The notes: a model not told the origin generated them from the letters alone. A stretch of 64,000 nt of DNA from an uncultured Prevotellaceae bacterium (GCA_947166345.1 CAMVDU010000001.1:11260-75259); one strand, 5' to 3'; positions 2,568-59,310 are shown, counted from the first letter of the stretch. A program made the numbers and translations.

Positions 2568-5500
2568 ATGTCAGTAAAAGCCTGGAGAGAAATTGTTACC
2601 ATCCCGACCTATGAGATTGGAAAGGCCGAGAAGAACCCCATCTTCCTTGAGAAACGTGTGTATCAGGGGTCGAGTGGGGTGGTGTATCCTTATCCCGTTA
2701 TTGAGTCGATAGCCAACGAGCCCACGCCCCGCGAGTGGAAGGTGGTCTTTCTGGAGAACGAGTATATCAAGGTGATGGTGATGCCCGAACTGGGTGGACG
2801 TATCCAGATGGCGTACGACAAGATTAAGCAGCGTCACTTTGTTTATTATAATCACGTCATCAAACCGGCCCTTGTGGGACTGACCGGCCCTTGGATCAGT
2901 GGTGGTATCGAGTTCAACTGGCCCCAGCACCATCGCCCCTCAACCTATCTGCCTGTTGACTGCGACATCGTGGAGAACCAAGACGGTAGTGTGACGGTAT
3001 GGGTGAACGAGATGGAGCGTATGTTCCATCAGAAGGGTATGGCAGGCTTTACGCTTCGTCCTGGTTGTGCCTATCTGGAGATACAGGGTCGCGTCAGCAA
3101 TCGTACGCCGCTTCCTCAGACGTTCCTGTGGTGGGCCAATCCTGCTGTGGAGGTCAACGATGCCTACCAGAGTGTCTTCCCCCCCGATGTGAACGCTGTC
3201 TTTGACCACGGAAAACGTGCCGTGTCCAGTTTCCCCATTGCTACGGGTACCTATTACAAGATGGACTACTCGGCAGGTGTGGATATCTCGAACTACAGGA
3301 ATATCCCTGTGCCCACCAGTTATATGGCTGTCAACTCGAAATACAACTTCGAGGGCGGCTACGAGAACGATACCCACGGTGGTATGCTCCATGTGGCCAG
3401 TCACCACTTCTCGCCAGGCAAAAAACAATGGACCTGGGGTAACGGCGACTTCGGACGTGCGTGGGACCGCAATCTCACCGACAACGCCACTGTGTCCGAC
3501 GGTTTGCCCGTTGGCTCTATCCGCACAGGCTTCCGTCCCTATATTGAGTTAATGGCTGGCGTCTATACCGAGAACCAGCCCGACTTCACCTGGCTGATGC
3601 CCTATGAGGAGAAACAGTTCACGCAGTATTTCATGCCATATCGCGAGATAGGCATCGTGAAACAGGCAAGCAAGGATTTCATCCTCAACATCTATAGTGT
3701 GGAAGACGGCTCTGTCGTCTTCAAAGTGCTGGCCACGTCGAAACAGGAGGCAAGGATTGTGTTGAAGAACAAGAATGGTGAGGTGCTCTACGACAAACAA
3801 CACATGCTGAGCCCTGAAACCGTACTTACAGAGACAGTAGTGTGTCCTGCAGTCTCGCTGCAGGATCTGACATTGTCCATCACTAATGCTAACCATATCT
3901 CTCACTTGTCATCTCTCATCTGGGAAGCAGAGCCCGACGAGATCCGTCCCATCCCCGATGCTGCGGAGGCAGCCCTGTCGCCCGAGGATACGAAGACCAA
4001 CGACCAGCTTTATCTCACTGGTCTGCACTTGGAACAGTACCGTCATGCTACGTGGAGTGCCCTCGACTACTACGAGGAGGCCTTGCGTCGTGATCCCAAT
4101 GATGTGCGCTGTCTGAACCAGACGGGACTATGGTATCTGCGTCGTGGACGCTTCGATAAGGCAGAGACGTATCTCAGAAAGGCCGTGAAGATATGGCAGA
4201 AACGTAATCCTAATCCTTACGATGGTGAGGCCATCTTCAACCTCGCCCTCGCCCTGAAATACCAAGGGCGTATGGATGAGGCTTACGGCCTCTTCTGGAA
4301 GGCTACGTGGAACAAAGCATGGGCCGATGCCGGCTACTTTGAGGCGGCTCGCATCAGTACCTCACAAGGTCGCTATGAGGATGCACTCGACGAGTTGAAC
4401 CGCTGTCTCACCTTCAATCATTGTCATCATCAGGCGCGTGCGTTGAAGGCTGCTGTGATGAGATATATGTCTGAAACCCAGGATGTAAGATTTGATTTTA
4501 TCAAGGAAAGCTTATATCTCGACTACTTCAATTTTGGCTGCCTCTACGAGCTGTACCTGCTGACCCGTGATCATATGGAACTCAGCCGTCTGAAGACCCT
4601 GCTTCGTAAGAGTTGCCACAACTACGACGAACTGGCACTCGACTACGCAGCGGCAGGTTTGCACGATGATGCTCGTGCCATTTGGTATACCGCCATCAGC
4701 GAGGGTGCTGTGAGTCCCATGACCTATTATTATTTGGGAGATTATAAGCAGGCAGAGGAACAACCTGCGGATTATTGTTTCCCCAATCGTCTGGAGGCTG
4801 TCGTCGCTTTGGAGAAGGCAAAGCAATACGCAGCCAATCATTGTCAATTATCCATTGTCAATTGTCAATTCAGTAAAGCACCTTACTATCTGGGATGCCT
4901 CTACTACGACAAGCGTCAGTACGACCTCGCCATCGAGAACTGGGAACTGTCGGCAAAACTCGATCCTCAGTTCCCCACCGTATGGCGCAACCTGGCGTTG
5001 GCCCGTTTCAACAAGCAGCATAAGCCTGACGAGGCGGTGGCATATATGGAGCGTGCCTTCCATCTGGACGAGACCGACGCCCGTGTGCTGATGGAGTTGG
5101 ATCAGCTCTATAAGCGCCTGCAAAGGCCTCATGCCGAACGACTGGCTTTCTTGCAGCAATATCCCCAACTGATAGCGCAGCGCGACGACCTCGTCCTTGA
5201 GGAGATCACCCTGCTGAATCACTTGGGTCGCTATGAAGAGGCGATGCACAAGCTCGATGCCCATCAGTTCCATCCGTGGGAAGGTGGCGAAGGTAAGGTC
5301 AGCGGACAGTACCAGATTTGCCGCATGGAACTCGCCAAGCAGATATTAGTTCATAATTCTTACACGCAGCCCAACTGTGAACTATGGACTATGAACTCTG
5401 AACTGAAAAGAGCCCACCGGCTTCTTGAGGAGTGTCTCGTCTTCCCGCCACATCTCGGCGAGGGCAAACTCTTTGGTGCTCAGGATAATGACTTCCTTTA

Positions 5501-5936
5501 TTTCCTTGGACGCTACGAGGAGGGAACAGTAGGTCCTACCGAGCCCGCTGCTGCCATGTATTATAACGATGCGAAGCCCGACAAGATCTTCTATGCTGCC
5601 CTGTGCTATCGCAAACTGGGACAGGAGGATAAGGCCCGTGGCCTGTTATATAAGCTGGTGAACTACGGTAAGCAGCACCTCTTCGATCATGTCACCATGG
5701 ACTATTTCGCCGTGTCGTTGCCCGACCTGCTGATATGGGATGGCGATCTGGACCAACAAAACCGCATCCACTGTCTCTATATGCTTGCCCTCGGCTATTA
5801 TGGCCTGGGCGACAAGGCGCATGCAGAGCGCTATCTCAAGGAACTGGAGCGTGAGGATATCAATCATTTTGGCGCAAAGGCGCTACGCTCGCTGATGAAA
5901 ATGACAGAACTAACCAATAAGCAGAAACGAACATGA
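2568..5936 (+). CDS. DUF5107-type N-terminal domain plus tetratricopeptide-repeat protein
   Basis: LENEY..V.VMPELGGRI, WISGGIEFNWPQHHRP and WWANPAV motifs; C-terminal TPR-like helices; no signal peptide. Confidence 0.8.
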   Translation: MSVKAWREIVTIPTYEIGKAEKNPIFLEKRVYQGSSGVVYPYPVIESIANEPTPREWKVVFLENEYIKVMVMPELGGRIQMAYDKIKQRHFVYYNHVIKPALVGLTGPWISGGIEFNWPQHHRPSTYLPVDCDIVENQDGSVTVWVNEMERMFHQKGMAGFTLRPGCAYLEIQGRVSNRTPLPQTFLWWANPAVEVNDAYQSVFPPDVNAVFDHGKRAVSSFPIATGTYYKMDYSAGVDISNYRNIPVPTSYMAVNSKYNFEGGYENDTHGGMLHVASHHFSPGKKQWTWGNGDFGRAWDRNLTDNATVSDGLPVGSIRTGFRPYIELMAGVYTENQPDFTWLMPYEEKQFTQYFMPYREIGIVKQASKDFILNIYSVEDGSVVFKVLATSKQEARIVLKNKNGEVLYDKQHMLSPETVLTETVVCPAVSLQDLTLSITNANHISHLSSLIWEAEPDEIRPIPDAAEAALSPEDTKTNDQLYLTGLHLEQYRHATWSALDYYEEALRRDPNDVRCLNQTGLWYLRRGRFDKAETYLRKAVKIWQKRNPNPYDGEAIFNLALALKYQGRMDEAYGLFWKATWNKAWADAGYFEAARISTSQGRYEDALDELNRCLTFNHCHHQARALKAAVMRYMSETQDVRFDFIKESLYLDYFNFGCLYELYLLTRDHMELSRLKTLLRKSCHNYDELALDYAAAGLHDDARAIWYTAISEGAVSPMTYYYLGDYKQAEEQPADYCFPNRLEAVVALEKAKQYAANHCQLSIVNCQFSKAPYYLGCLYYDKRQYDLAIENWELSAKLDPQFPTVWRNLALARFNKQHKPDEAVAYMERAFHLDETDARVLMELDQLYKRLQRPHAERLAFLQQYPQLIAQRDDLVLEEITLLNHLGRYEEAMHKLDAHQFHPWEGGEGKVSGQYQICRMELAKQILVHNSYTQPNCELWTMNSELKRAHRLLEECLVFPPHLGEGKLFGAQDNDFLYFLGRYEEGTVGPTEPAAAMYYNDAKPDKIFYAALCYRKLGQEDKARGLLYKLVNYGKQHLFDHVTMDYFAVSLPDLLIWDGDLDQQNRIHCLYMLALGYYGLGDKAHAERYLKELEREDINHFGAKALRSLMKMTELTNKQKRT

Positions 5937-7996
5937 AGAGGAATCTCCTTTTGCTTATCATGCTGAGTGCATGCTGTGCCCTCGGTATGCAGGCGACGGA
6001 ACTGGGAAAAGAGGTGACATGGGACCGGTATAGCCTGATGATGGACGGCAGGCGCGTCTGTCCCGTGATGGGCGAGATTCACTATTCGCGCATACCTGCC
6101 GACGAGTGGCAGGAGGAGGTGAGAAAGATGAAAGAGGGTGGGGTGACAATCATTGCCACCTACGTATTTTGGAACCATGTGGAGGAGGAAGAGGGCATCT
6201 TCCGCTGGGACGGCCAGCGCAACCTGCGGGGCTTCCTGGAGATATGCAAGGAGGAAGAGATGCCTGTCATCTTGCGCATGGGTCCGTTCTGTCATGGTGA
6301 GGTGCGCAATGGCGGCATTCCCGACTGGATGTTTGAGAAGGGATGCAAGATGCGTGACCGCAACCCCGTGTTCCTGGGCTATGCAGAAAAGCTATACCGT
6401 CAGATCTTTACCCAGGTGCAAGGCCTTCAGTGGAAAAACGGCGGACCTGTCATGGCGGCTCAGTTTGACAATGAGTATCGGGGACGCGGTGAGTATCTGA
6501 TGGACCTGAAACGCTTGGCCCAGAAGATTGGCTTCGACCTGCCGTTCTATACGCGCACCGGCTGGCCCGAACTGGCAACGCCCGTGCCCTTCGGCGAGAT
6601 GCTGCCCCTCTATGGCGACTATGCCGATGGCTTCTGGGACCGTACGACGGGCGAGACTGACGGTAACTACTACAAGGCATTTAACTTCAAGGCCTTCCGC
6701 TCGTCAACAGCGATTGCCACTGAACAGATCAACTATCAACAGTCTCCCCTCCCTTTGGAGGGGAAGGGGGAGGCAGTCTATCCTTACTTTACTTGTGAGC
6801 TGGGCGGAGGTATGATGCAGGCCTATCATCGTCGTCCGTATGTCTATGCCGAGGATGCCTATTCGATGGCATTGGTGAAACTGGGTTCGGGTTCGAACCT
6901 GCTGGGCTATTATATGTATCACGGTGGTACCAACCCTGAAGGCAAGACCTATCTGAACGAGAACCAGCGCACCAAGGGCACTAACTACAACGACATGCCC
7001 GTGAAGAACTACGACTTCCAGGCACCCTTGGGCGAGTTTGGACAGAGGAACGCGCATTACTATATGTTGCGCCCCCTGCACCTTTTTATGCAGGATTGGG
7101 GCGAGACACTGGCCGAGATGGAAGCATCGTTCCCTGCACCGCAGGACATTCAGAAAGGTGATGACTCACATCTGCGCTGGGCAATCAGAAGTGAAAAGGG
7201 AAAAGTGAATAGTGAAAAATTTGCTGCCGCCTTTATTTTTATCAATAACTACGAGCGTCTGCAGAACCTTTCTGCGAAGAAAGATGTGCAGTTGGAGGCC
7301 TGTGGCGTCACCCTGCCCAAACTGACTATCCCTGCTGGTTGCATGGCCATCTTCCCCGTGAATGTGGATGGCATCAAGTATGCTACGGCTCAACTGGTGG
7401 CCAAGCGCGACGGCAAGATCTATCTGATGCAGGTACCAGGCATCGCCACCACCATCAGTATGCAGAATGGTAAGGTGCTGAAGAACGTGAAACCTCGTGG
7501 TACAGAAAAACCTGTCTATGGTAATCTCTATCTGTTGACGAAGCAGGAGGCTGAGCATCTCTTTTTAAGTGAAAAAGCCGCTGCAGGAACGTCTGAGGTT
7601 GCTTTTGAGAAGGTACGTGAGGCGGGACCGTTGCGTGATATCACCAAGGGTGCCCAGCGTGTGGCTGAGGAACCCTCTGACGAGGACTATGAGGAGGCTG
7701 CTGTCTATCGTATCAAGGTGTCAGAGGCTGAAGAGGGTCGGTCGAAGCGTCTGCTGCGTATAGACTATCAGGGCGATTGTGCCCGTCTTTATGCCAACGG
7801 ACAACTGGTGGCCGACCATTTCCAATATGGTCGTCCGTTTCTCTATGGTTTGTGGCGACTGCCTGAGGACTGCAAGGAACTGGAGCTGCGCATCCTGCCC
7901 CTGCAGAAGGATGCACCCGTCTATCTGCCACGTGAGGCCGACAAGACTGTGGGTGAAGGTGTGAAGCGTATTGAAATAACAAACGAAGGATTATGA
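5933..7996 (+). CDS. GH35 beta-galactosidase family protein
   Basis: GEIHYSRIP, TYVFWNHVE, GPFCHGE, QFDNEY, YYMYHGGTNP; signal peptide. Confidence 0.9.
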   Translation: MKRNLLLLIMLSACCALGMQATELGKEVTWDRYSLMMDGRRVCPVMGEIHYSRIPADEWQEEVRKMKEGGVTIIATYVFWNHVEEEEGIFRWDGQRNLRGFLEICKEEEMPVILRMGPFCHGEVRNGGIPDWMFEKGCKMRDRNPVFLGYAEKLYRQIFTQVQGLQWKNGGPVMAAQFDNEYRGRGEYLMDLKRLAQKIGFDLPFYTRTGWPELATPVPFGEMLPLYGDYADGFWDRTTGETDGNYYKAFNFKAFRSSTAIATEQINYQQSPLPLEGKGEAVYPYFTCELGGGMMQAYHRRPYVYAEDAYSMALVKLGSGSNLLGYYMYHGGTNPEGKTYLNENQRTKGTNYNDMPVKNYDFQAPLGEFGQRNAHYYMLRPLHLFMQDWGETLAEMEASFPAPQDIQKGDDSHLRWAIRSEKGKVNSEKFAAAFIFINNYERLQNLSAKKDVQLEACGVTLPKLTIPAGCMAIFPVNVDGIKYATAQLVAKRDGKIYLMQVPGIATTISMQNGKVLKNVKPRGTEKPVYGNLYLLTKQEAEHLFLSEKAAAGTSEVAFEKVREAGPLRDITKGAQRVAEEPSDEDYEEAAVYRIKVSEAEEGRSKRLLRIDYQGDCARLYANGQLVADHFQYGRPFLYGLWRLPEDCKELELRILPLQKDAPVYLPREADKTVGEGVKRIEITNEGL

Positions 7997-10938
7997 GACG
8001 TGTTTTGAGATTGGCTATTGGCTTTTGGCTATTGGCTATTGGCAGCGTGGCTGCGCAGCAGGTTATCGACCTCTCGGGGGCCTGGGACTTTGCCGTTGGC
8101 GACTCTACGAGTTACAACGACTACGTCATGTTGCCTGGCTCTATGCTGACCAATGACAAGGGGCGCCCCGTTGATTTGGAGACGCAGTGGACAGGGTCGC
8201 TCTACGACTCGTCCTATTACTTCAATCCTGATATGGCTGTCTATCGTCAGGCCGGCAACATGAAGTTTCCGTTCTTCCTGACACCCAAGAAACACTACGT
8301 GGGTAGTGCATGGTATCGCCGTTCGGTCTATTTACCAAAAGACTGGAAAGGAGAACGCATCTTCTTGTTCCTGGAGCGGCCCCATATTGAGACAACTGTC
8401 TTTGTGAATGGTAAGGAGGTGGGTCACCAGATGTCGCTCTCCACACCTCATCAATATGATGTGACGAAATATCTGAAGGCTGGTCAGCGCAATACGATTG
8501 CCATCAAGGTCTATAATGGTATAGAGAATGTGTGCGTGGGACAAGACTCTCACAGCGTCACCGACCAGACACAGGGCAACTGGAACGGCATCGTAGGACG
8601 CATGGAACTGCAGGCCCGCCCTAAGAAAGTCAATATCCGACAGGTGCGCATCTATCCCGACCTGACCCAGCAGAAAGCGCGTGTGGTGGTTGATGTGGAG
8701 AATAATGCCAACCGCTATCTGGCTGAATGGCACCTAATGCAGATCACAGAGTACGGTGTGGTTTGCGAGATACGCGAGATAGGCAAACAGGGTGAGCGGC
8801 TCATCAGCACTTCGCCTTTCTTCGAACTGGATGGCAGGAGTCATATAGAGTTGGACATGAAAGCTGACGACCTGAAGCCGTGGAACGAGTTTGCGCCCAA
8901 CCTCTATAGGCTCACCGTCTATGCCGGTGACGATGTTTATGAGACCACCTTTGGCATGCGCGACATCAAGGTGCAGGGACGCCAGCTGATACTGAACGGT
9001 GTGCCCCTCTTCCTGCGTGGTACGGTGGAGAACTGCTGCTTCCCCTTGACAGGTTATCCGCCCACTGACGAAGAAGAGTGGCTGCGCATCTTCCGCAAGT
9101 GTAAGGACTATGGCATCAACCACGTGCGCTTCCACAGCTACTGTCCGCCAGAGGCTGCCTTCAACGCTGCCGACATCATGGGCATCTACCTGCAGCCAGA
9201 GGGACCGTCGTGGCCTAACCATGGGGTGAAACTGCGTCGGGGTATGGCTATCGACCAGTATCTTCTGGACGAGTCGAAACGTATCATCGACACCTATGGC
9301 AACCATCCGTCGTTCCTGATGATGGCATCGGGCAACGAGCCTGCCGGCGACTGGGTGAGCTATACGAACGACTGGGTGAAAGAGATGCACCAGTATGACT
9401 CTACGAAAATCTATTGTGGTGCTTCCGTCGGTGGCGGTTGGGCCTGGGACAACGGCTCCGAGTATCATGTGAAGGGTGGGGCACGTGGTCTTAACTGGGA
9501 CAAGAAAGCCCCGTCGAGTGATGATGACTACTATAGCGGCATTGAGTTCCCCCGCAATTTCAAACCGACTGAAACTAATCATACCTCTCAGCTCTCAACT
9601 CTCAATTCTCAGTTGAAAAACACCTCGCCTATCATCGCCCATGAGCAGGGCCAGTGGTGTGCCTTCCCAGACCTGAAAGAGACCGAGCAATATACGGGTG
9701 TCTACAAAGCCGAGAACTTCGACATCTTCCGCGACCTGTTGGCAAAGAACGGTATGGCATCGCAGGCCGAGAACTTCCTGATGGCCAGCGGTAAGCTGCA
9801 GACGCTCTGCTATAAGTACGAGATAGAGCGCAACCTGCGTACGAAGGACTATGCTGGCTTCCAACTGCTGGGACTCAACGACTACAGCGGTCAGGGCACG
9901 GCTTTGGTGGGAGCGCTGAACGTCTTCTGGCGCGAGAAGGGCTATGTCAACGCCCGTCAGTGGCGCGAGTTCTGCAGTCCCTTCGTTGTATTGGCACGTT
10001 TCCCTAAGTTTGTCTATACCAACAACGAGACCTTGGAAGTGCCCCTCGAGATGATGAATGCCTATGTAAAGAATGTAGACAGTGTTTCAGTCAGTTATCA
10101 GCTCTTTACTGACGAGGGCGTCCTAATAGCACTCGATACACTGTCGGTTCCTTCGCTGAAGGTGGGAAAGAACAATGCCCTTGGCACCGTGCGTCAGCCC
10201 CTGAACAGTCTGACCGTTCCTACGAAGGTGACCCTTGCTGTGAACTTTGCCAATCTGTTTGGCAATCACTGGGAGTTCTGGGTCTATCCCGATTCTGTTG
10301 ATGGTCAGGTGGAACAGTTGGACGAGAAAGACCTCTATATCGCTGATTCGCTTGATTCAAAGGCACTGAAGGTGCTTGCCGATGGCGGCAAGGTACTGTT
10401 GACGGCAGCCGGCAAGGTTACCCTGGGCAGCGATGTGAAACAGTCGTATCTGCCTGTGTTCTGGAACACATCGTGGTTCAAGATGCGTCCGCCCCACACC
10501 ACAGGAGCCTATATCGACAAAAAGCATCCGCTGTTCAAGTACGACTTCCCCACCGACTCATGGTCGAACATTAACTGGTGGGAGCTGCTCAACAAGGCAC
10601 AGGTGATGAACCTCATGGAACTGCCCCTCGACTACCAGTCGCCCATCCAGCCTATCGATACGTGGCACATCAGTCGTAAGCTGGGTATGCTCGTTGAGGC
10701 TAAGGTGCTGAATGGTAAACTGCTGATGACGACAATGGACATCACCAGCCGTCTCGACCAGCGTGTCGTAGCACGACAGATGCGTCAGGCCATCCTGCGA
10801 TACATGCAGAGCGAAGACTTCAATCCCTCCATCACCCTTAGTCCTGAAGTCATTACCGACTTCTTCACCCGTCAGGCTCCACCAGTAAACATGTTTACCA
10901 AGGACTCACCCGACGAATTGAAGCCAAAACTCAAATAA
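7993..10938 (+). CDS. GH2 glycoside hydrolase
   Basis: Sugar-binding N-terminal domain (WYRR, WNGI.G), FGMR, NHVRFHSYCPP, NHPS..M.ASGNE; signal peptide. Confidence 0.88.
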   Translation: MRRVLRLAIGFWLLAIGSVAAQQVIDLSGAWDFAVGDSTSYNDYVMLPGSMLTNDKGRPVDLETQWTGSLYDSSYYFNPDMAVYRQAGNMKFPFFLTPKKHYVGSAWYRRSVYLPKDWKGERIFLFLERPHIETTVFVNGKEVGHQMSLSTPHQYDVTKYLKAGQRNTIAIKVYNGIENVCVGQDSHSVTDQTQGNWNGIVGRMELQARPKKVNIRQVRIYPDLTQQKARVVVDVENNANRYLAEWHLMQITEYGVVCEIREIGKQGERLISTSPFFELDGRSHIELDMKADDLKPWNEFAPNLYRLTVYAGDDVYETTFGMRDIKVQGRQLILNGVPLFLRGTVENCCFPLTGYPPTDEEEWLRIFRKCKDYGINHVRFHSYCPPEAAFNAADIMGIYLQPEGPSWPNHGVKLRRGMAIDQYLLDESKRIIDTYGNHPSFLMMASGNEPAGDWVSYTNDWVKEMHQYDSTKIYCGASVGGGWAWDNGSEYHVKGGARGLNWDKKAPSSDDDYYSGIEFPRNFKPTETNHTSQLSTLNSQLKNTSPIIAHEQGQWCAFPDLKETEQYTGVYKAENFDIFRDLLAKNGMASQAENFLMASGKLQTLCYKYEIERNLRTKDYAGFQLLGLNDYSGQGTALVGALNVFWREKGYVNARQWREFCSPFVVLARFPKFVYTNNETLEVPLEMMNAYVKNVDSVSVSYQLFTDEGVLIALDTLSVPSLKVGKNNALGTVRQPLNSLTVPTKVTLAVNFANLFGNHWEFWVYPDSVDGQVEQLDEKDLYIADSLDSKALKVLADGGKVLLTAAGKVTLGSDVKQSYLPVFWNTSWFKMRPPHTTGAYIDKKHPLFKYDFPTDSWSNINWWELLNKAQVMNLMELPLDYQSPIQPIDTWHISRKLGMLVEAKVLNGKLLMTTMDITSRLDQRVVARQMRQAILRYMQSEDFNPSITLSPEVITDFFTRQAPPVNMFTKDSPDELKPKLK

Positions 10939-12781: not shown

Positions 12782-14473
12782 TTATTTCTTCAGATAATTT
12801 GCCAAGGGCAGGCCAGTGGCTTTCAGCCCTTTGGCAAAGCTTTGGGCGTTCATGCGGGCACCAAGCTTGGAGGCGTGGGTGTGGTCTTTCTTGAAATAGA
12901 CACCAGCCTTCTCCTTGATCTTGGCAACCTTGGCCTTGGCTTTCTCCTTGTCCTTAGGCAAACGCTTCACGCTGAACTTCTTATCGAGGAAATCGGCAGA
13001 GATGTTGTGCATGTCGATGAAGGCTACGCCAGTCTCCTCCACCACCTCACGATACCATTTGCCGTAGGTGTCGTCACGACGTTCTATCTTACCGCCAGGC
13101 CATTCGTTGCGTGGTGTCAGCGAGACGAGGATGGGTGTGGCGCCCTTCTCGCGACAGTCGTCAATCATCTTCTTCAGGTACCATCCAAAGCTGTAAACCA
13201 CCTCGTAGGTGTCGTTGTCGAGATGATAGACGTGGAGTGTGTCCTGTGTGCCAGGGATGACACCACGGGCCTTCGCATCGGTGATGGGGCAGATGTCGTT
13301 GTGTCCAAACTGAATGGTGACGAAGTCACCCGGTTGTAGGGCGTTATAGACGGCATCCCACAGGCCTTCGCGGATAAACGAGCGTGTCGAACGGCCGGCA
13401 CGGGCTGCATTCACCAATTGTATCTTGCTCTCGTCAAAGACGGTAGCTGCTTGCGAAGCCCAGCCCCACATGCCGTCGTCGTCCTTGTCGGCGTTCTTCA
13501 CCGTCGAGTCGCCCGTAAACCAGAGTACGGGCTTTCCGCTGAGGCGATTCACATTCCAAATGGTCTTTTGGGGAATCGGCATGAATTTCATGAGCGCCTT
13601 CAACTGCGGGTCGTGACTCTGCACAATACCTAGATAGGCGCTATAGGCGTTCAACTCAGCACCGAACTTTGACGTGTGGATTTTGTCACCCAGGAAGTGA
13701 TAGTCCACCTTCCAGCGACTGAACGAGTCGAGTTCCTTGCCACTAATCTCGTTGAGGTCGATGAAGGGCACATCCTCCTCGGCAGCAACGGCACGTGCCC
13801 ATTCTGTCTGGGGCTTGCGTATGATCTTCCCTTGGTCATCATAGGCGTTGCGAGGCGTCAGCGACATCAGAATGGTATGGGCCCCTTTCTGGCGAGCCTC
13901 ATGGATGTATCTGCGTAGGTAGTTGCCATAGCTGTAGACTGTGTCCTGCTGCTGTGTGCGCTGGTTGAAGCCTACGTAGCAGGTGTCGGGGTCGATGCCA
14001 GGGATGACGGCACGCGCCCTCTTAGCATCGAAGAACTCGCCATTATCATTATGTCCTATCGATACGATGACCCAGTCACCTGGCTTCAGGGCTTCGCGGA
14101 TGGCTGGCCACAGGTCTGTATAGAAAGTGCGGGTGGACATGCCCCCCAGGGCCTGGTTCTCGACAGAAATCTTGTTGGCATCAAAATAATTGGGGAAGAA
14201 ATAGCCCCAGCCCCACTGACCGTTATTACCATTGCCCAATGTGCCGTTGCGCATCGTCGAATTGCCGACGAGGAACAACACGGGGTTCGTGCCCTTGCGC
14301 GTAGAGCCAGGTGCCGGGCGCGACATCAGTGCCTTGGCAATGGAGTCGGGTGTGTTGTCCACCACCTTGTTCACATCTTCGATGGGATCGGGCAGGTTGT
14401 CAAAGACTTGAGCCCTTGCAGGGCTTGATGACAGTTGATAGATGATAAATGATAATGCCAGTAGTCGTTTCAT
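12782..14473 (-). CDS. Tandem SGNH/GDSL rhamnogalacturonan acetylesterase-like protein (CE12)
   Basis: Two domains with GNST/GDST, GHND and DxxH (DKIH, DHTH); signal peptide MKRLLAL. Confidence 0.85.
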   Translation of the reverse strand: MKRLLALSFIIYQLSSSPARAQVFDNLPDPIEDVNKVVDNTPDSIAKALMSRPAPGSTRKGTNPVLFLVGNSTMRNGTLGNGNNGQWGWGYFFPNYFDANKISVENQALGGMSTRTFYTDLWPAIREALKPGDWVIVSIGHNDNGEFFDAKRARAVIPGIDPDTCYVGFNQRTQQQDTVYSYGNYLRRYIHEARQKGAHTILMSLTPRNAYDDQGKIIRKPQTEWARAVAAEEDVPFIDLNEISGKELDSFSRWKVDYHFLGDKIHTSKFGAELNAYSAYLGIVQSHDPQLKALMKFMPIPQKTIWNVNRLSGKPVLWFTGDSTVKNADKDDDGMWGWASQAATVFDESKIQLVNAARAGRSTRSFIREGLWDAVYNALQPGDFVTIQFGHNDICPITDAKARGVIPGTQDTLHVYHLDNDTYEVVYSFGWYLKKMIDDCREKGATPILVSLTPRNEWPGGKIERRDDTYGKWYREVVEETGVAFIDMHNISADFLDKKFSVKRLPKDKEKAKAKVAKIKEKAGVYFKKDHTHASKLGARMNAQSFAKGLKATGLPLANYLKK

Positions 14474-21988: not shown

Positions 21989-23731
21989 ATGAAGAAGAAA
22001 CTAATCCTATCAGTTGCCCTCCTGGGGGCTTGTGTCAACATGAGTGCACAGACACTGGCTACCGACTTTAAGGGTTCTGGTTACAACAATCCCATCAGTT
22101 CTAACATCTTTTGTGCTGACCCCACGGGCCTGGAGTACAACGGACGTCTGTATGTCTATGGCTCGAACGATCACCAGGAGTTTGTGGCCAACGGTAAGAA
22201 AGGCAATAACACCTACGGCAACATCAAATCGATTGTGGTGTTCTCCACCGATGATATGGTGAACTGGACGTTCCATGGCACCATCGATACGAAGAAGATC
22301 TGTGCAGGATGGACGCCGAGCGCATGGTACAAAGGCTATGGTGTGTCGTGGGCTCCGTCCGTGACGTGGCGTCATAATGCGGAAACTGACGAGGACGAGT
22401 TCTTTCTTTATTTCTGTAACTCGAGTCATGGCGTCGGTGTGCTGAAGGCCAACTCGCCTGTGGGACCTTTTAAATCGCCCAATAAGGAGCTGATGATTCA
22501 TTACGACACGCCAGGTGCCAATGCGCAAGGTACCAATGCCAATTTCGATCCGGGTGTGACTATCGACGACAACGGTGTGGGCTGGATTGCCTTTGGTGGC
22601 CTTGGTCCCAGTACGATAATGCCTGAGGCTGCCCGTATTGTGAGGCTGAAGCCTTCGATGACCGAGGTGGACACTACGGCTGTCAAGATTCACGCTCCCT
22701 ACCACTTCGAGGCCAACGAGTTGAACGTCATTGGTGGTAAGTATGTCTATACCTACTGCTCGAACTGGGAGTCTCGTGATGGTTGGAACACCTACAAGAG
22801 TCAGCACGGCATCACAGCCAGCGCCCCTGGCGGTGGCACTATGTGCTATATGGTTAGCGACAATCCTCTTGATCCCGACTCTTGGGTATATAGAGACTAT
22901 TACGGTCCTGGCGTTGGTGGCAACAACCACTCGCACTTGCAGAAGTTCCAGGGCAACTACTATCACCTCTACCACAACCACGGTGATATTCTGTTGAATG
23001 CCATGAAAAACGCGGGAGAGGCTGATCAAAGTGCTGGCGACTACCGTTCTATCTGTGTGAACCAGACCACTGTGACCGAATCGACGGCAACCATCAATCG
23101 CGTGACACAGAACCGTGAGGGTGCCAGTCAGATTAAGAAGCTGAATCCCTACGAATGGCAGGAGGCCGAGACGATGGCCAGCTGCCGCGGTGTGGGCTAT
23201 GAGGACTATGTTAACATCAAGAAGAACGGAAGAGTAAGCTCTCTGGGCAACGATGCCTCCATTAACATGCTGGTGAAGATGAAGGCTGGCTCGTGGATCA
23301 ATGTCCGTGGTGTCAACTATGGAACGACTGGCGCCTCACAGTTCACACTCCGTGCCAAGGGTACAGGTAAGATGGAGTTGCGCAACGGTACCAGCGACCG
23401 TACCATAATAGCCACCATCGAGTTCTCTTCGACATCGACAGACGTGGAAGAGCAGACCTTCGATATTCCTGAAGGCAAACTGAAGGGCGAGAAGTCCAAC
23501 CTCTATCTGGCTGTCACTGAGGCCACCGACTTCTATGTTGATGCCTGGAAGTTTACTGATGGTGCCGCTTCAGGCATCCAGGAAGTTGCCAACGGTCTGC
23601 AGCCAACGGCTGATAGTCAGCGTTACGACATTTCTGGTCGTAAGCTGTCCGACGCCCAGCAGCATCGTGGCATCACCATCGAGCAATATACCGACGAGAA
23701 TGGCGTGAAACACTATCGCAAGAAGTTCTGA
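21989..23731 (+). CDS. GH43 (XynD-like arabinofuranosidase) with CBM6-like module and T9SS-type tail
   Basis: ADP, WAP, FDP, FEA, NNH motifs; LNPY..QEAET; YDISGRK C-terminal tail. Confidence 0.85.
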   Translation: MKKKLILSVALLGACVNMSAQTLATDFKGSGYNNPISSNIFCADPTGLEYNGRLYVYGSNDHQEFVANGKKGNNTYGNIKSIVVFSTDDMVNWTFHGTIDTKKICAGWTPSAWYKGYGVSWAPSVTWRHNAETDEDEFFLYFCNSSHGVGVLKANSPVGPFKSPNKELMIHYDTPGANAQGTNANFDPGVTIDDNGVGWIAFGGLGPSTIMPEAARIVRLKPSMTEVDTTAVKIHAPYHFEANELNVIGGKYVYTYCSNWESRDGWNTYKSQHGITASAPGGGTMCYMVSDNPLDPDSWVYRDYYGPGVGGNNHSHLQKFQGNYYHLYHNHGDILLNAMKNAGEADQSAGDYRSICVNQTTVTESTATINRVTQNREGASQIKKLNPYEWQEAETMASCRGVGYEDYVNIKKNGRVSSLGNDASINMLVKMKAGSWINVRGVNYGTTGASQFTLRAKGTGKMELRNGTSDRTIIATIEFSSTSTDVEEQTFDIPEGKLKGEKSNLYLAVTEATDFYVDAWKFTDGAASGIQEVANGLQPTADSQRYDISGRKLSDAQQHRGITIEQYTDENGVKHYRKKF

Positions 23732-26065: not shown

Positions 26066-27466
26066 ATGCTTGAACTAGTGAACAATGTGAACGACGTGCT
26101 GTGGGCCTACTGCCTCATTCCTGCGCTGGTAGCTTGTGGGCTGTGGTTCACGTGGCGCACCCGCTTTGTGCAGTTCCGTATGGTAGGCGAGATGTTCCGT
26201 CTGCTGCGCGACTCCTCGTCCAAACCTAAGGGTATGGGCAGGCACATCTCCTCGTTCCAGGCCTTCACCGTCTCGCTGGCATCGCGTGTGGGTACGGGCA
26301 ACCTCGCAGGCGTGGCTACGGCCATTGCCGTGGGTGGTCCTGGTGCCGTGTTCTGGATGTGGGTCATGGCGCTCTTCGGTTCTGCCTCTGCCTTCGTCGA
26401 GAGTACGCTGGGTCAGCTGTTCAAGCAACCCCACAGCGACTCCTTCATCGGTGGTCCGGCCTACTATATCCGTCACGGTCTGCATTGCCGTTGGATGGCC
26501 ATCCTCTTTGCCGTGCTCATCACCATCTCGTTTGGTCTTGCCAACAACTCCGTACAGGCCAACACCATCTGTGGGGCTATGGAGGGAGCCTTCGGATGGA
26601 ACGCCCAGATGGTGGGAGTGGTGATCACCCTGACCACGCTGGTCATCGTCTTTGGTGGCATCCAGCGTATCGCCCGTGTCAGTAGCGTGCTGGTGCCCAT
26701 CATGGCGCTGGGCTATTTCCTGCTGGCTGTGGTGGTCATCGTTACCAATATCAGCGCAGTGCCCCGTGTGTTCCAGGTCATCGTCGAGAGTGCCTTTGGC
26801 CTGCGTCCTGCCGCTGGTGGCATGTTGGGTGCTGCCATCATGAACGGTGTCAAGCGAGGTCTCTTCAGTAACGAGGCAGGCGAGGGTAGTGCCCCCAATG
26901 TGGCGGCTACGGCCACCGTCTCGCATCCTGTCAAACAGGGACTCATCCAGGCGCTGGGCGTCTTCACCGATACGCTGGTGGTCTGCTCGTGTACCGCTTT
27001 CATCATCCTCATCAGCGGACTCTACGACAACCCCGACCTCAACGGCATAGCCCTCACCCAGTCGGCCCTCCAGTCGGAGGTGGGCTCCTGGGGTCCAACC
27101 TTCATTGCCGTCGCCATCTTCCTCTTTGCCTTCTCGTCCATTATCGGCAACTACTATTACGGTGAGGCCAACATGCGGTTTATGACGAAGAGCCGTGTGG
27201 CGATGACCATCTACCGTCTGATGTCGGGAGGTGTCTTCGTGATGGTTGGTGCCATGATGACCCTCGATGCTGCCTGGAGCTTCATCGACTTCTTCATGCC
27301 CCTGCTCACGGCCTGCAACCTCGTGGCCATCCTCCTCTTGGGCAAGTACGCCTTCCGTCTGCTTGACGACTACCGCTCTCAGCGTCGTCAGGGCATCAAG
27401 CATCCTACCTTCCATCGCAGTCAGCTGCCCGAGATTGAGCACGATCTTGCATGCTGGGAAGATTAA
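26066..27466 (+). CDS. Alanine/glycine:cation symporter (AGCS family)
   Basis: SRVGTGNLAGVA, GGPGAVFWMW, GGPAYY, FSNEAGEGSAP. Confidence 0.93.
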   Translation: MLELVNNVNDVLWAYCLIPALVACGLWFTWRTRFVQFRMVGEMFRLLRDSSSKPKGMGRHISSFQAFTVSLASRVGTGNLAGVATAIAVGGPGAVFWMWVMALFGSASAFVESTLGQLFKQPHSDSFIGGPAYYIRHGLHCRWMAILFAVLITISFGLANNSVQANTICGAMEGAFGWNAQMVGVVITLTTLVIVFGGIQRIARVSSVLVPIMALGYFLLAVVVIVTNISAVPRVFQVIVESAFGLRPAAGGMLGAAIMNGVKRGLFSNEAGEGSAPNVAATATVSHPVKQGLIQALGVFTDTLVVCSCTAFIILISGLYDNPDLNGIALTQSALQSEVGSWGPTFIAVAIFLFAFSSIIGNYYYGEANMRFMTKSRVAMTIYRLMSGGVFVMVGAMMTLDAAWSFIDFFMPLLTACNLVAILLLGKYAFRLLDDYRSQRRQGIKHPTFHRSQLPEIEHDLACWED

Positions 27467-27495: not shown

Positions 27496-27497
27496 TA

Positions 27498-39891: not shown

Positions 39892-42165
39892 TCAGGTTTC
39901 GAGCAGGGTGTCGAGCGATGCCTGCTCGCCCACAATCCAGATGATGTCGCCCTCCAGGAACTGACGGTTGGGACGGAAGGGAGAGAGGTTCTCCTTGCCT
40001 TCCTCCAGACCCACGACCATGCAGTTGTAGCGGCTGCGCAGACCACTCTCCTCGAGGGTCTTGCCGATGAAGGGACTGTCGGCACCGATAATCATCTGGC
40101 GCAGTTTCATCTCGCGTTTCTCAAGATTGACATCTTCGACCATCAGCTCCTGCTGAAGGGCTGCAGCCAGCTTGCCCAGCTGTTCATCGCTGCCGATAAC
40201 CTGCAGACGGTCGAAGGGGAAGAGCTGGTCATCGCCCGAGGGAATGTTGAGACGGTTGCCACCACGCAGGATGCTGCTGACATGGACACCATACTTGCGA
40301 CCCAGGTTCAGTTGCTTGAGCGTCTGACCCATCCACGCCGAGTTGGCAGGAATGTCGAAATCGGCAATATGGATATCGCGGTCGAGGAGCTTGCCTTCGT
40401 AGAGCGGACGGCGCTTGCCGTGCACCTGTGCCTCGATGTCGCGCGAACGCAGGTTGTTGATGAACAGGCGTTCGAGCAGGATGCTGCGGCGCTTGATGCC
40501 GCGCGACTGGACGATGAGCACCACGGCGATAACACCCACGGTGATGACGATGGCAGGCGCAAAGTGGAGCAGGTGCTGACAGACGTAGAACACGTAGGTG
40601 ACACCAATGAAGCCTCGTATCAGGACGGTGGCCATCAGCGGCGGACGGTTGCGGTTGCTCTCTGCCCACAGGGCCTTCCACTCCTCGCTGTGGTTCTTCT
40701 TCATAATCATGGCCCGCAGGAAGGGGGCAATGAAGAGGATGGTGAGCAGGCCTATGATGAGCTTCGCTATGGACAATGGATAATTGAGAATGGACAGTTG
40801 GACGGGTACCAACTTCTCAGCCAGTGGCAGAGCGAAGACGAACATCACAGTAATGATGGCTGTCGAGAGGATGCTGTAGACAATGGTGTTGACAACCATC
40901 TGCTTGAGCAGCTGTTTCCATTTGCCACGCTTGGTGGTGTCAGGATGGCTCATCGACAGGTGGTTGAGCGAACGGATGATGCGCGAGGGCAGTCGGTGCT
41001 CAAGGGCATTGTAGGCAGGCGTTGCCAGGCGTATCATGTAAGGCGTGAGGAAGGTGGTGATCACCGATACAGCCACCACCACAGGATAGAGGAAGTCGCT
41101 GATGACGCCCAGGGACAGACCCAAGGAGGCGATGATGAACGAGAACTCACCAATCTGCGCCATTGAGAAGCCGCAGCGCATGGCCGACTTCAGCGACTCG
41201 CCGCCCAGCATGAACGAGAACGAGCCCACGGTGCTCTGTCCGACGATGATGGTCAGGATGAGTGCCAGGATGGGCAGGGCATAATCGACGATGATCTGAG
41301 GATCGACGAGCATACCCACCGACACGAAGAAGATGGCGCCAAAGAGGTTTTTCACAGGCTCTACCAGCTTCTCGATGCGCTCGGCCTCGATGGTCTCGGC
41401 CAGGATGCTGCCCATGATGAAAGCACCAAAGGCAGAAGAGAAACCTACCTTCGTGGAGAAGACTGCCATAGCACAGCAGAGTCCCAGCGACACGATGAGC
41501 AGCACCTCGGCATTGATGAGGCGGCGCACCCTGCGCAGGAACAGAGGGATGGCGAAGATGCCCACCACGAGCCACAACACCAGGAAGAACACGATCTTCA
41601 CGATGGAACCAAGCATCTGACCACTATCGGTACCGTTGCCGCTGGCAATGGCACTCAGCATCACCATCATGACAATGGCAAGGATGTCCTCGAGGATGAG
41701 GACGCTCATCACCAGACCCGTGAACTGCTGTTGTCGCAGGCCCAGATCGTCGAACGCCTTATATATAATAGTGGTGGACGACATGGCCAGCATACCGCCC
41801 AGGAAGATGCAGTCCATCTTGGACCAGCCGAAGGCCTGGCCCACGATGAAGCCCAGCGTGGCCATCGCCGTAATGATGCAGATAACACTGATGATGGGCG
41901 AGGCGCCCATCTTCAGTATTTTCTTGAAAGAGAAGTCGAGTCCCAACGAGAACAGCAGGAACATCACGCCGATGTCGGCCCACAGGTGGACGTTGGACAT
42001 GTCGGTGACGCTTGCCGTATAGGGCATGTGGGGACTGACCAGGAAGCCCGCAACGATGTAGCCCAGCACCAGCGGCTGCTTCAGCTGCTTGAAGATGAGG
42101 GTTACAATGCCGGCGACCATCAGGATGAGCGCCAGGTCGGAAATCATTGCAGGTAGTTCTGACAT
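39892..42165 (-). CDS. CPA2 cation:proton antiporter with C-terminal RCK_C domains
   Basis: LGYIVAG, SSTTII, ILEDI, FFVSVG, QIGEFSFI; two GQTL/GKTL RCK_C repeats. Confidence 0.92.
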   Translation of the reverse strand: MSELPAMISDLALILMVAGIVTLIFKQLKQPLVLGYIVAGFLVSPHMPYTASVTDMSNVHLWADIGVMFLLFSLGLDFSFKKILKMGASPIISVICIITAMATLGFIVGQAFGWSKMDCIFLGGMLAMSSTTIIYKAFDDLGLRQQQFTGLVMSVLILEDILAIVMMVMLSAIASGNGTDSGQMLGSIVKIVFFLVLWLVVGIFAIPLFLRRVRRLINAEVLLIVSLGLCCAMAVFSTKVGFSSAFGAFIMGSILAETIEAERIEKLVEPVKNLFGAIFFVSVGMLVDPQIIVDYALPILALILTIIVGQSTVGSFSFMLGGESLKSAMRCGFSMAQIGEFSFIIASLGLSLGVISDFLYPVVVAVSVITTFLTPYMIRLATPAYNALEHRLPSRIIRSLNHLSMSHPDTTKRGKWKQLLKQMVVNTIVYSILSTAIITVMFVFALPLAEKLVPVQLSILNYPLSIAKLIIGLLTILFIAPFLRAMIMKKNHSEEWKALWAESNRNRPPLMATVLIRGFIGVTYVFYVCQHLLHFAPAIVITVGVIAVVLIVQSRGIKRRSILLERLFINNLRSRDIEAQVHGKRRPLYEGKLLDRDIHIADFDIPANSAWMGQTLKQLNLGRKYGVHVSSILRGGNRLNIPSGDDQLFPFDRLQVIGSDEQLGKLAAALQQELMVEDVNLEKREMKLRQMIIGADSPFIGKTLEESGLRSRYNCMVVGLEEGKENLSPFRPNRQFLEGDIIWIVGEQASLDTLLET

Positions 42166-43759: not shown

Positions 43760-43815
43760 TTAATGCTTAATTCTTAATGCTTAATTGTCAATTGTCAATT
43801 GTGAATTGTCAATTG
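43760..43815. repeat. 7-bp tandem array x8 (ttaatgc drifting to tcaattg)
   Basis: Unbroken 7-nt register. Confidence 0.9.
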
Positions 43816-43821
43816 TTTAAC

Positions 43822-51449: not shown

Positions 51450-51453
51450 GATG

Positions 51454-57208: not shown

Positions 57209-58339
57209 ATGACGCTATATCCAAAAATGATTATGGATGCCCTTGCTACGGTGACGTATGCGGGTACCAAGAAGAACCTTGTGGAGAGTGGGATGGTGGC
57301 TGATACACCGTCCATCAACGGCATGAAAGTAAAGGTTGTCCTGCTTTTCCCTCGTGATACCGACCCGTTTCTGAAATCGACAGTCAAAGCAGCTGAGGCA
57401 GCTATCAAGTACCACTACCAGCAACTGGCGGCCAATAGCGAAAAACCAACAGCTGATATCGAGGTGGAGATTGAGACAGAGTTTAAGTCGAAACCCCGTC
57501 CTGAGATAGAGAAATTGTTGCCAGGCGTGAAGAACATCATTGCTGTCAGTTCAGGTAAGGGTGGGGTTGGTAAGTCAACCGTATCGGCTAATCTCGCTAT
57601 CTCGCTGGCTCGACTGGGCTATAAGGTGGGTTTGCTCGATACCGATATCTTCGGCCCTTCGATGCCAAAGATGTTCAATTGCGAGGATGCCCGTCCCTAT
57701 GCTGTCAATATTGATGGACGCGATCTCATAGAGCCCATCGAACAGTATGGCGTGAAGCTTCTCTCAATAGGTTTCTTCGTTAATCCCGATACTGCTACCC
57801 TTTGGCGTGGTGGTATGGCAACGAATGCCTTGAAGCAACTTATTGCTGATGCTAACTGGGGCGAACTGGACTATTTCATCCTCGATACCCCTCCTGGAAC
57901 CAGCGATATTCATCTGACACTCCTTCAGACACTCAGTATCACGGGTGCTGTTATCGTTTCCACGCCACAGCAGGTGGCCTTAGCCGATGCCCGCAAAGGT
58001 ATCGACATGTATCGCAATGACAAAGTCAACGTGCCCATCCTTGGATTGGTGGAGAATATGGCTTGGTTCACACCAGCCGAACTTCCTGAGAATAAATACT
58101 ATATCTTTGGAAAGGAAGGCTGTAAGCAGCTGGCCGAGGAGATGGGTTTGCCGCTGTTGGCTCAGATTCCGCTGGTTCAGAGTATCTGCGAGAGTGGAGA
58201 TGCTGGTGCACCTGCAGCCACTAAGGTTGACACGATGACAGGACAGGCTTTCCTGAATCTGGCGCAGGCTGTGGTTACTGTCGTGAACCGTCGTAACAAA
58301 GAACTGCCTAAGACGAAGATTGTCGGTATGAAATCTTAG
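57209..58339 (+). CDS. mrp: Mrp/NBP35 (ApbC) Fe-S carrier ATPase
   Basis: SGKGGVGKST, D.DIFGPS, WRG, DTPPGTSD, ENM. Confidence 0.93.
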   Translation: MTLYPKMIMDALATVTYAGTKKNLVESGMVADTPSINGMKVKVVLLFPRDTDPFLKSTVKAAEAAIKYHYQQLAANSEKPTADIEVEIETEFKSKPRPEIEKLLPGVKNIIAVSSGKGGVGKSTVSANLAISLARLGYKVGLLDTDIFGPSMPKMFNCEDARPYAVNIDGRDLIEPIEQYGVKLLSIGFFVNPDTATLWRGGMATNALKQLIADANWGELDYFILDTPPGTSDIHLTLLQTLSITGAVIVSTPQQVALADARKGIDMYRNDKVNVPILGLVENMAWFTPAELPENKYYIFGKEGCKQLAEEMGLPLLAQIPLVQSICESGDAGAPAATKVDTMTGQAFLNLAQAVVTVVNRRNKELPKTKIVGMKS

Positions 58340-59310
58340 ACGAGAAACGATCCGACAACAAAGACAGTTGCTGTCAGCAACAACATAAGAACTTCAGCCG
58401 TACGATTCACCCGTACGGCTTTTTTCATGTCGTCTGTAGTCAACTGACGTGGATTGGTGCCGATGAACGGTTTGTCGAAGAGTTGTCCAAAGTATTCGTG
58501 AGGACCACCGAACCTGCAATCAAGGATACCAGCCAGCGATGCCTCTGGATAGCCACTGTTGGGACTGGCGTGATTCCGTCCGTTAGCACGGACGAAATGG
58601 AAGATGGACGATTGATGATTGGCAATGGCATGAGGCAGAATCATCAGCAGTGCAGTCAGTCGGGCAGGAATATAGTTGAAGACATCATCCTGACGGGCAG
58701 CCACGCAGCCGAAGTCACGGTAACGCTCTGTGCGATAGCCTAGCATCGAGTCGAGTGTGTTCACCATCTTATAGGCCAGCATGCCGGCAGGCCCTAAGAG
58801 CAACAGCCAGAAGAGTGGGGCGATGACACCGTCGCTCAGGTTCTCGGCCAACGTCTCCAACGCAGCTGTGCGCACCTCTTGTGCCGACAGCGCTTTGGTG
58901 TCGCGTCCCACGATGCGAGCCACCTGCTGGCGTCCTTCTTCCAGTGAACGATCCAGGGCCACAAAAACATCCCTGACCTCGTGTATCAGTGTCGTTCCTG
59001 CCAGACAGTAGAAGATGATAATGCTGGAGAGGAGAACGTAGAGTATGACGTTGACAGATGCAAGGAGGCGCAGTATGAAAAATGTCAAAAAGAATACTAA
59101 TAGGACCAGACCAATAGCCAGGATGCCGCCTTTCAGTTTTCGGTGCTTGCCGTGATTGAGTCGTTTTTCGCCCCATGCAATCATCTTTCCGAAATACACA
59201 ACAGGATGGGGCAGCCATGAGGGGTCGCCCAACAGCAGGTCGAGGAGCCAGCCTGCCAACAAAGCAATAGGCAGGGCATAGGCTGATATGTCAAAGAGAT
59301 ATTCCAACAT
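58336..59310 (-). CDS. cbiB: Adenosylcobinamide-phosphate synthase
   Basis: GDP...HPV, IVGRDT, ENLSDG.IAP, NTLDSM.GY, SPNSG.PEA. Confidence 0.93.
   Translation of the reverse strand: MLEYLFDISAYALPIALLAGWLLDLLLGDPSWLPHPVVYFGKMIAWGEKRLNHGKHRKLKGGILAIGLVLLVFFLTFFILRLLASVNVILYVLLSSIIIFYCLAGTTLIHEVRDVFVALDRSLEEGRQQVARIVGRDTKALSAQEVRTAALETLAENLSDGVIAPLFWLLLLGPAGMLAYKMVNTLDSMLGYRTERYRDFGCVAARQDDVFNYIPARLTALLMILPHAIANHQSSIFHFVRANGRNHASPNSGYPEASLAGILDCRFGGPHEYFGQLFDKPFIGTNPRQLTTDDMKKAVRVNRTAEVLMLLLTATVFVVGSFLV

Follow-up and report, generated by a model that had tools for sequence, protein, structure and literature searches.

Short arrays of tandem 7-base units (tracts) were analyzed in a 64,000-nucleotide stretch of DNA from an uncultured Prevotellaceae bacterium (GCA_947166345.1, CAMVDU010000001.1:11260-75259), here called the window, and in the assembly from which it was taken. 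The tracts stand in open reading frames (ORFs) of many unrelated proteins, and the feature is real and genome-wide. A likely source of the tracts is found outside the window, in the arms of small cassettes that carry a gene of the four-helix-bundle family PF05635/TIGR02436 between heptamer arrays. The complete model, in which in-gene tracts are copies or leftovers of such arms that were pasted by the host and filtered by selection, is favored with moderate confidence; the narrower proposition that host recombination alone does the copying is finely balanced and leans slightly toward doubt.

The source assembly (G000, in which the window is G000:C1:11260-75259) comprises 2.28 Mb in 61 contigs, is 82% complete, and has a GC content of 50%. 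Its contigs are denoted Cn, the loci compared Lnnn, and other genomes by other Gnnn numbers. The closest titled relatives of the window's Mrp protein are from uncultured Prevotella (91%), and DNA near-identical to the window is present in sheep and cattle gut metagenomes. Gene calling was mechanical, the longest ORFs that do not overlap being taken as genes, and the resulting counts and start positions are approximate.

Period-7 tracts in the window and the genome

An earlier, sequence-only reading of the window had listed 11 coding heptamer tracts and two intergenic arrays (43760 and 60295). All were found in place, the coding tracts in open frames; the array at 60295 overlaps the cobQ stop codon and is thus at a gene edge. 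The accompanying gene labels fit the Pfam domains, except that, for the "GH43" gene, the sole hit was to CBM6 and below the cut-off, and CE12 is seen as GDSL. A fixed test, in which 16 of 21 bases must match at a lag of 7, was passed by 8 of the 11 tracts and failed by three degenerate ones (3894, 23587, and 57430). Tandem Repeats Finder reported 6 of the 11.

Period 7 accounted for 12 clusters in the window, compared to 5 for period 8 and 0-1 for periods 2-6 and 9-13; in the genome there were 347, versus 8-25 for periods 4, 5, 10, 11, and 13. The claim that the signal is specific to this period and does not arise from codon repeats withstood shuffling: in 1351 ORFs of at least 200 amino acids (aa), the period-7 count was 134, versus means of 1.0 in five codon-order shuffles and 6.4 in five synonymous shuffles. 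Because some units read backwards are rotations of themselves, the reversed-pattern control is not independent.

Tract classes were assigned with a separate segment finder, which gave 315 tracts in G000, most with 4-5 units: 125 inside ORFs, 90 across a start or stop codon, and 100 intergenic. The tracts are short (median, 32 bases) and imperfect. They are borne by 101 of the 1552 ORFs of at least 150 aa (6.5% of genes, about 1 in 15), and 20 of the 84 unit families account for 71% of the 315. There is also a smaller period-8 class (121-126 clusters genome-wide), which is mostly outside the coding sequence (CDS). Period-8 arrays occur at gene junctions in the window (361-410, 2500-2568, and 25940-26057), and the arms of many cassettes are built of 8-base units.

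Four-helix-bundle cassettes with heptamer arms

The sequence-only reading had invoked a period-specific process of repeat seeding. Because few unit families predominate, many with a fixed one-sided linker, a module appears to have been copied instead. Small genes flanked by heptamers, which that reading had proposed to look for elsewhere in the genome, were found in the form of the PF05635 cassettes. It was right that no candidate enzyme is present in the window; profile searches of the 82% complete G000 gave no match to RVT_1 (PF00078) or to Y1_Tnp (PF01797).

Seven TIGR02436 matches were found in G000, six of them full length. All four cassette genes that were tested exceeded the Pfam cut-off for PF05635, and PDB entry 2RLD was matched with an E value of 1.6e-28. 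We know of no catalytic activity in PF05635 cargo. As judged by eye, repeat arrays flank all six full-length genes: in four, these are inverted heptamer arms of 4 units, and in the other two they are arrays of longer period. All six are located between protein-coding genes, not in 23S rRNA, and the arms of cassettes at gene junctions touch stop and start codons. For each of the four heptamer cassettes a terminal stem is predicted, formed by pairing of the last 50 bases with 37-41 of the first 45. In a search for other cargo between inverted arrays of period 7-13 in G000 (28 pairs), the four-helix genes were the sole recurring cargo.

In the genus, 78 cassette loci were assembled (6 from G000 itself, 29 top hits, 40 hand-picked, and 3 incidental). 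Arrays were present on both sides in 59, matching inverted pairs in 52, and period 7 in 30. The right arm forms the N-terminus of the next gene at C26, L121, and L313; two more automatic flags were rejected. The next gene at C26 is presumably RadC-like.

Two other arrangements with inverted arrays were noted in G000. At G000:C1:118643-118972 (L148), a GxxExxY gene (TIGR04256) is located between inverted arrays of a longer composite unit. At G000:C8:60544-62762, two adjacent small genes are each bracketed by inverted 8-base arrays; one of these genes resembles, by eye, an HU-like DNA-binding protein.

Evidence connecting in-gene tracts to cassette arms

The units of 45% of 121 CDS tracts are arm units of another genome's cassette, compared to 2.4% of random 7-mers and 6.4% of letter-shuffled units. 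The resemblance extends past the repeat almost only on one side: similarity to the inner flank of a cassette was seen for 18 of the 121 inner flanks, for 1 of 121 outer flanks, and for 0.7% of random CDS. These 18 tracts therefore do not have the unrelated flanks of local amplification. A hand-made one-sided linker motif, which was composed after some flanks had been seen and is less independent than the flank-similarity test, was present in 20 of 125 tracts versus 0. Within the window, a clear linker stands at 7218-7231 and at 9575-9583, and by eye one can also be made out before 4837 and 5373.

Two gene-less, in-frame dyads, at C33:3088 and C53:4135, have 14-15-point matches to the interior of cassette C26. 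One contig (L089) contains the same arm-plus-linker in two genes, and in each of four metagenomes 28-50 contigs per run share the piece 7189-7231, breaking off at its outer end (7189). Over 151 genomes, the four-helix gene count was correlated with the unit pattern (rho 0.51 per Mb), and 74 of 104 gene-bearing genomes were repeat-rich, compared to 9 of the 47 others; in these comparisons the pattern covers some of the unit families, kin are not independent, and 13 genomes with only weak hits were counted as lacking the gene.

Larger dispersed repeats, with 50-85 shared flanking bases, contain an arm and linker at C20:18583, C29:167, and C34:5060 and at C23:12241, C33:1392, and C49:4350. These are possible arm carriers resembling MITEs (miniature transposable elements with inverted repeats).

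Indels, host structures, and hot spots

Orthologs were gathered by genus searches (the best 29, 29, 15, 24, and 11 loci) and from 80 metagenome loci, and net tract length was measured against the commonest ortholog length. The alignments indicated that most tracts are lineage-specific, being in frame in unrelated genes and absent from orthologs. Five of the ten testable sites are clear insertions of 8-14 residues; one is ambiguous, two are partial, and two are near-equal-length replacements, with 0-5 net residues among these others. The earlier statement that loops are being added to the proteome is hence only half right, because half of the testable sites are replacements of host sequence or ambiguous.

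Structure mapping placed all three modeled tracts, those of the DUF5107/TPR protein, in turns or loops of an AlphaFold model. The tract at residue 443 is in a hairpin turn and partly forms the second strand, and those at 757 and 936 are in inter-helix loops. The mean predicted local distance difference test (pLDDT) score of this model is 62.7; its C-terminal part is good, residues 89-360 are unreliable, and residues 932-938 have a pLDDT below 50.

Period-7 or -8 tracts occur in 12 of 43 DUF5107, 35 of 74 GH35, and 14 of 35 GH2 sequences, at a few clustered sites and with differing units. For DUF5107 site 757, a one-clade origin of the filled sites was rejected by the approximately unbiased (AU) test (p=0.0015); it was not rejected for the CbiB site (p=0.29) or GH2 site 530 (p=0.21). 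Identity among L089, L090, and L082 swings from 52% to 100% along the DUF5107 gene. Because of this mosaic pattern, recombination is concluded to move filled sites also. Identical units are modestly more frequent within a locus (5.8%) than between loci (1.8%). At the empty Mrp site there is a 7-base match to the unit family; at the empty DUF5107 site in L090, a seed unit is lacking. In carbohydrate-active enzymes, the hot spots show where insertions are tolerated, and the tracts can mislead start-site calls and alignments.

A second repeat class is present in heptamer-bearing loops of six DUF5107 orthologs (L050, L053, L087, L089, L093, and L112). Judging from the proline-serine-glycine peptides, it is apparently a short C-rich/G-rich hairpin. 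Since this unrelated repeat occupies the same loops, they are viewed as tolerant sinks. The DUF5107/TPR orthologs in L042 (G134), L065 (G106), and G112 have one internal stop each; no four-helix gene was found in L042 or L065.

Selection, orientation, and stability

Tract density is 485 per Mb in intergenic DNA versus 60 in CDS. Where only one orientation is stop-free, 75 tracts use the stop-free strand and 16 the other. The 90 edge tracts comprise 56 that overlap a stop and 34 that overlap a start. Among the CDS tracts, 25 of 122 begin within the first 30 aa, compared to 7.9 expected, and hydrophobic peptides are encoded by 18 of the 25 N-terminal tracts versus 7 of the 97 internal ones. We infer that purifying selection has kept the in-frame, stop-free copies in tolerant places.

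The 18 hydrophobic N-terminal tracts are predicted signal-peptide cores, on the pattern of a basic segment, a hydrophobic segment, and a cleavage site. Of the AGCCAA family's copies, 7 of the 8 at N-termini encode hydrophobic peptides and 8 of the 9 internal ones polar peptides. By this sorting of orientations, repeat DNA appears to have been co-opted as secretion signals in fibre-degrading rumen bacteria. The scale of the phenomenon (6.5% of genes) together with this sorting is striking.

The tracts are stable passengers, not on/off switches. In a strain with 98.6% identity over 16.8 kb, all seven tracts were unchanged, and no strain-level change in length was observed. Among the contigs listed from four studies, 6 of the 7 tracts in 2500-15000 were spanned without gaps, although contigs hide rare variants. 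One RNA-library contig crosses tract 5373 ungapped, in a library that may contain DNA; 6-18% of the words were present in the RNA runs, with that single contig bridging a single tract.

Many intergenic tracts are close to the box TAnnTTTG, which we take to be the -7 promoter consensus of Bacteroidetes. Thirty-five of the 100 are within 25 bases of such a box (background, 7.7%), and 12 of the 100 are between two back-to-back boxes (background, 0.4%). Examples are C4:43709, C12:34124, and C36:836. From their positions, heptamer arms seem to fill promoter spacers.

Mechanism and alternatives

The cassettes as the source of the tracts are well supported; copying of the arms is what we infer. Cassettes, whose location at gene junctions is observed, would settle there, and a landed cassette may then lose its middle, leaving a double or single arm. 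Arm-plus-linker modules would probably be pasted at further sites by host break repair or template switching, with 0-25 host bases replaced and no target duplication left. Filled sites could pass between species by short-patch recombination. A selection filter would retain copies with a polar reading in loops and those with a hydrophobic reading in predicted signal peptides.

Several observations weigh against this model. The linker is undetectable in about 85% of CDS tracts. The AGCCAA family, which supplies 3 of the 11 window tracts, has no cassette among the 30 period-7 cassettes, and no four-helix gene was found near 19 of its loci in three genomes. G018 and G034 have 109 and 160 pattern matches with no four-helix hit; conversely, nine genomes with at least three four-helix genes have 0-2 pattern matches. 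The loci searched yielded no gene with a full cassette inside it, searches of the 82% complete G000 for RVT_1 and Y1_Tnp revealed no mobilizing enzyme, and 40 of the 78 cassette loci had been chosen by hand in repeat-rich relatives. Independent hot-spot origin was backed at only one of the three sites tested. Finally, host coding sequence of 160-500 bases is found between the arms of some inverted pairs; insertion followed by deletion cannot produce this, and single arrival of arms is therefore also required.

Ordinary host coding sequence is enclosed by complementary left and right arms, separated by about 160-190 bases, in L039, L043, and L044 (DUF5107 residues 375 and 438) and in GH35 orthologs (residues 545 and 600). 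An inverted partner is present within 1 kb for 15 of 115 CDS tracts, versus a direct partner for 7, and most tracts are single 30-base arms. For the window tracts, with partners sought within 2 kb, inverted matches were no better than direct ones (14-16 of 24), except for the remnant at 5347.

Copying of the arms through RNA is considered unlikely. RNase III would cut the cassette stem from operon mRNA, as it does for 23S rRNA intervening sequences (IVSs); the arm RNA would be bound by the four-helix protein, acting as a cofactor in the manner of Avd; and arm cDNA would be written at new sites by a reverse transcriptase working in trans. PF05635 proteins are presumably similar to Avd, a protein of diversity-generating retroelements. 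The predicted stems of 37-41 pairs would suit this route, and replacement without target duplication, with a fixed module length, fits templated synthesis. In Coxiella, the stem around a PF05635-type ORF is 28 bp long and includes 3-4 heptamers, the first of which is the site of RNase III cleavage (PMC4990558). Against it stand the lack of an RVT_1 match in the 82% complete G000 and the intact crossing of tract 5373 by the RNA-library contig (with its possible DNA origin); adenine-biased variation was not noticed, no search having been aimed at it. An extended version is similarly unlikely: PF05635 cassettes would constitute a so far unrecognized class of mobile element, with the RNA stem processed and retro-copied with a four-helix pentamer as cofactor; in this single genome, the arms would have written loops into about 100 proteins and provided some 18 signal peptides with their hydrophobic cores, and the bacterial heptamer excess would be explained.

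It is quite unlikely that the repeats are primary and the gene a passenger, some other process spreading heptamer modules between pairs of which four-helix genes ended up. The repeat-rich G018 and G034, the AGCCAA family without a cassette, the ratio of tracts to cassettes (315 vs. 4, about 80 to 1), and the position of 35 of the 100 intergenic tracts beside a promoter-like TAnnTTTG box speak for such a process. However, the in-gene dyads hold letters of the cassette interior, the arms are self-matched at 52 of 78 loci, and four-helix genes alone recur between inverted heptamer pairs in G000.

Polymerase slippage favoring 7-base units, a hypothesis of Mrazek 2007 (as cited in PMC4692102), would amplify local heptamers in place, and we consider it improbable here. 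A heptamer excess is present in many bacteria, and four units is the commonest size in Xanthomonas (PMC4692102); the match at the empty Mrp site could have served as a seed, and slippage could homogenize units once an arm is present. This explanation is weakened by the linker test, because a one-sided linker is shared, and also by the concentration of 71% of tracts in 20 families, the absence of a seed unit at the empty DUF5107 site in L090, module ends common to dozens of contigs, and strains with no change in length. Phase-variable contingency loci, in which gain or loss of a 7-base unit toggles genes, can be practically dismissed: a 7-base change would shift the frame and many host genes encode polysaccharide-degrading enzymes, but the tracts are short and imperfect (median, 32 bases), were unchanged in the 98.6% strain and gap-free at 6 of 7 positions in contigs of four studies, and occur in housekeeping genes such as mrp as well.

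Relation to known systems

There is a close likeness to ORF-bearing 23S rRNA IVSs (S23p, PF05635) such as that of Coxiella burnetii, which has the same protein family, an ORF in a long terminal stem, and 3-4 tandem heptamers in the arm next to the ORF, as do the cassettes described here (PMC4990558). The present cassettes differ in lying between protein-coding genes and in being accompanied by hundreds of gene-less arms, many inside proteins. Rickettsia palindromic elements (RPEs) likewise place repeat DNA in frame in many unrelated genes, with apparent tolerance by the fold (PMC10969869). They are palindromes of about 150 bp with a conserved peptide, and 44 insertions were first reported (PMC10969869), whereas the tracts studied here are tandem heptamers of about 30 bases in about 20 main families and about 100 genes, often replacing host bases and in either orientation. 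Neither a palindrome of about 100-150 bp nor terminal inverted repeats with a target-site duplication, as in RPEs or intragenic MITEs, was found; target duplication was not visible in DNA alignments, in which the orthologs are only 70-90% alike.

The genome-wide period-7 excess and the approximately four imperfect units are those of heptameric long simple sequence repeats (SSRs) and cyanobacterial short tandemly repeated repetitive (STRR) sequences, which also include occasional inverted pairs (PMC4692102). The repeats described previously (Mrazek 2007 and Calothrix repeats, as cited in PMC4692102) are mainly intergenic and unexplained or slippage-born; here, in contrast, 40% are inside ORFs and the linker is tied to a cassette gene. 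In layout there is a resemblance to REPIN/RAYT systems, with a repeat-flanked gene, gene-less inverted doublets, and decayed singlets, but repetitive extragenic palindromic (REP) sequences are short extragenic palindromes moved by a Y1 transposase (PMC3116915). G000 (82% complete) has no PF01797 match.

The small dispersed repeats (SDR) of Nostoc are reportedly very small and, as Elhai is said to have described in 2008, enter genes without a known enzyme; they are not tandem heptamer arms, and we know of no link between them and PF05635 genes. The reverse transcriptase of diversity-generating retroelements was not found (no PF00078 match in G000, 82% complete; template and variable repeats were not searched), nor was the variation in unit number between strains that marks phase-variable SSRs, the comparison being of contigs only. 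No paper was found that joins four-helix cassettes to in-gene heptamer tracts or reports these in Prevotella, in a literature search whose coverage mostly excluded subscription journals. Three unexplained matters are tied together by these observations: the bias of long bacterial repeats toward heptamers, the S23p/four-helix family with its lack of a known function, and the presence of selfish DNA within proteins.

Individual tracts

Three tracts are on the plus strand of the DUF5107/TPR gene (2568-5936). A degenerate CTCATCT tract with a linker-like flank (3883..3921) encodes residues 443-452, in a beta-hairpin turn. Its unit is identical to the arm of cassette L321. The site has the same length as in 23 of 41 orthologs and is thus ambiguous, with a clean 27-nt gap in L090 compared to L089, L082, and the window. 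A linker and TCAATTG tract (4828..4871; residues 757-768) is in a loop between TPR helices; 10 aa are added and about 6 host residues replaced, 39 of 41 orthologs being shorter. In the DNA alignment, about 50 new bases stand in place of about 20 host bases, target duplication is not visible, and L044 and L045 carry other units at this site. A collapsed dyad (5347..5407) consists of a 2-unit left-arm remnant (5347-5359), a linker (5364-5372), and an AACTATG tract (5373-5407; residues 936-947). It adds 14 aa, is longer than in 39 of 41 orthologs, and has the same units and linker as cassette L319.

The GH35 gene (5933-7996) carries an AGTGAAA left arm with inner linker (7189..7231, plus strand; residues 420-429) that adds 8 aa (60 of 72 orthologs shorter); the linker matches that of cassette G000 C8:63458. 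In the GH2 gene (7993-10938), a TTGGCTA tract (8010..8045, plus strand) forms the hydrophobic core of the predicted signal peptide. This region is replaced at similar length, orthologs having other units or none, and no cassette with the TTGGCTA unit was found among the 30 period-7 cassettes and 19 loci examined. A linker and CTCAACT tract farther along (9575..9614, plus strand; residues 530-541) adds 14 aa (27 of 33 orthologs shorter). Its inner flank matches cassette L349 with a score of 12, and L086 and L089-L091 have other units there.

The TTATCAT tract at 14427..14454 (minus strand) is in the predicted signal peptide of the GDSL/CE12 gene (12782-14509); its sole comparison was a strain-level copy, L068, and it is not among the ten indel-testable sites. 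A degenerate AGCCAAC tract (23587..23621, plus strand) is in the C-terminal tail linker of a CBM6-bearing glycosidase (21989-23731). It is a replacement with a net gain of 2 aa; 8 of 10 orthologs are 2 aa shorter, and none has a tract. Like this one, tracts at C9:40922, C11:58498, C11:53945, and C20:26914 are in the linker immediately preceding the conserved C-terminal tail of a large secreted protein.

A TGTCCAT/TATCCAT tract (40769..40796, minus strand) encodes residues 457-466 of the CPA2 antiporter (39892-42165), for a net gain of 5 aa; all 24 orthologs are shorter and lack a tract. The degenerate AGCCAAT tract of Mrp/NBP35 (57430..57457, plus strand; gene 57209-58339, residues 74-83) adds 10 aa; 27 of 29 orthologs are shorter, as are 76 of 80 further orthologs by at least 8 aa, and L021 has a different period-7 insert at the site. 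In CbiB (58336-59325), a mixed heptamer tract (58596..58630, minus strand; residues 232-244) gives a net gain of 4 aa, and 3 of 15 orthologs have a TCACTTT tract at the same site.

Two abutting heptamer arrays, not assigned to a strand, are just upstream of the RNase E/G start (43760..43816). Their unit TTAATGC is also the arm unit of cassette G000 C55:2643, and the RNase G-CPA2 gene order is not conserved among 24 relatives. Two arrays of different units, also unstranded, fill the junction from the cobQ stop to the aminotransferase start (60260..60335). Absent from the earlier reading were an AAGATTA array (27459..27504, plus strand) spanning the junction, stop to start, between the alanine symporter and alpha-galactosidase genes and a GC-rich heptamer array, GCGGCAG (38238-38267), which is inside an esterase gene (37978-39162) and unlike the AT-rich families. 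At 36903-37061 and 34600-34743, the window also has tandem arrays of 22 bases, which are intergenic, and a coding repeat of 66 bases.

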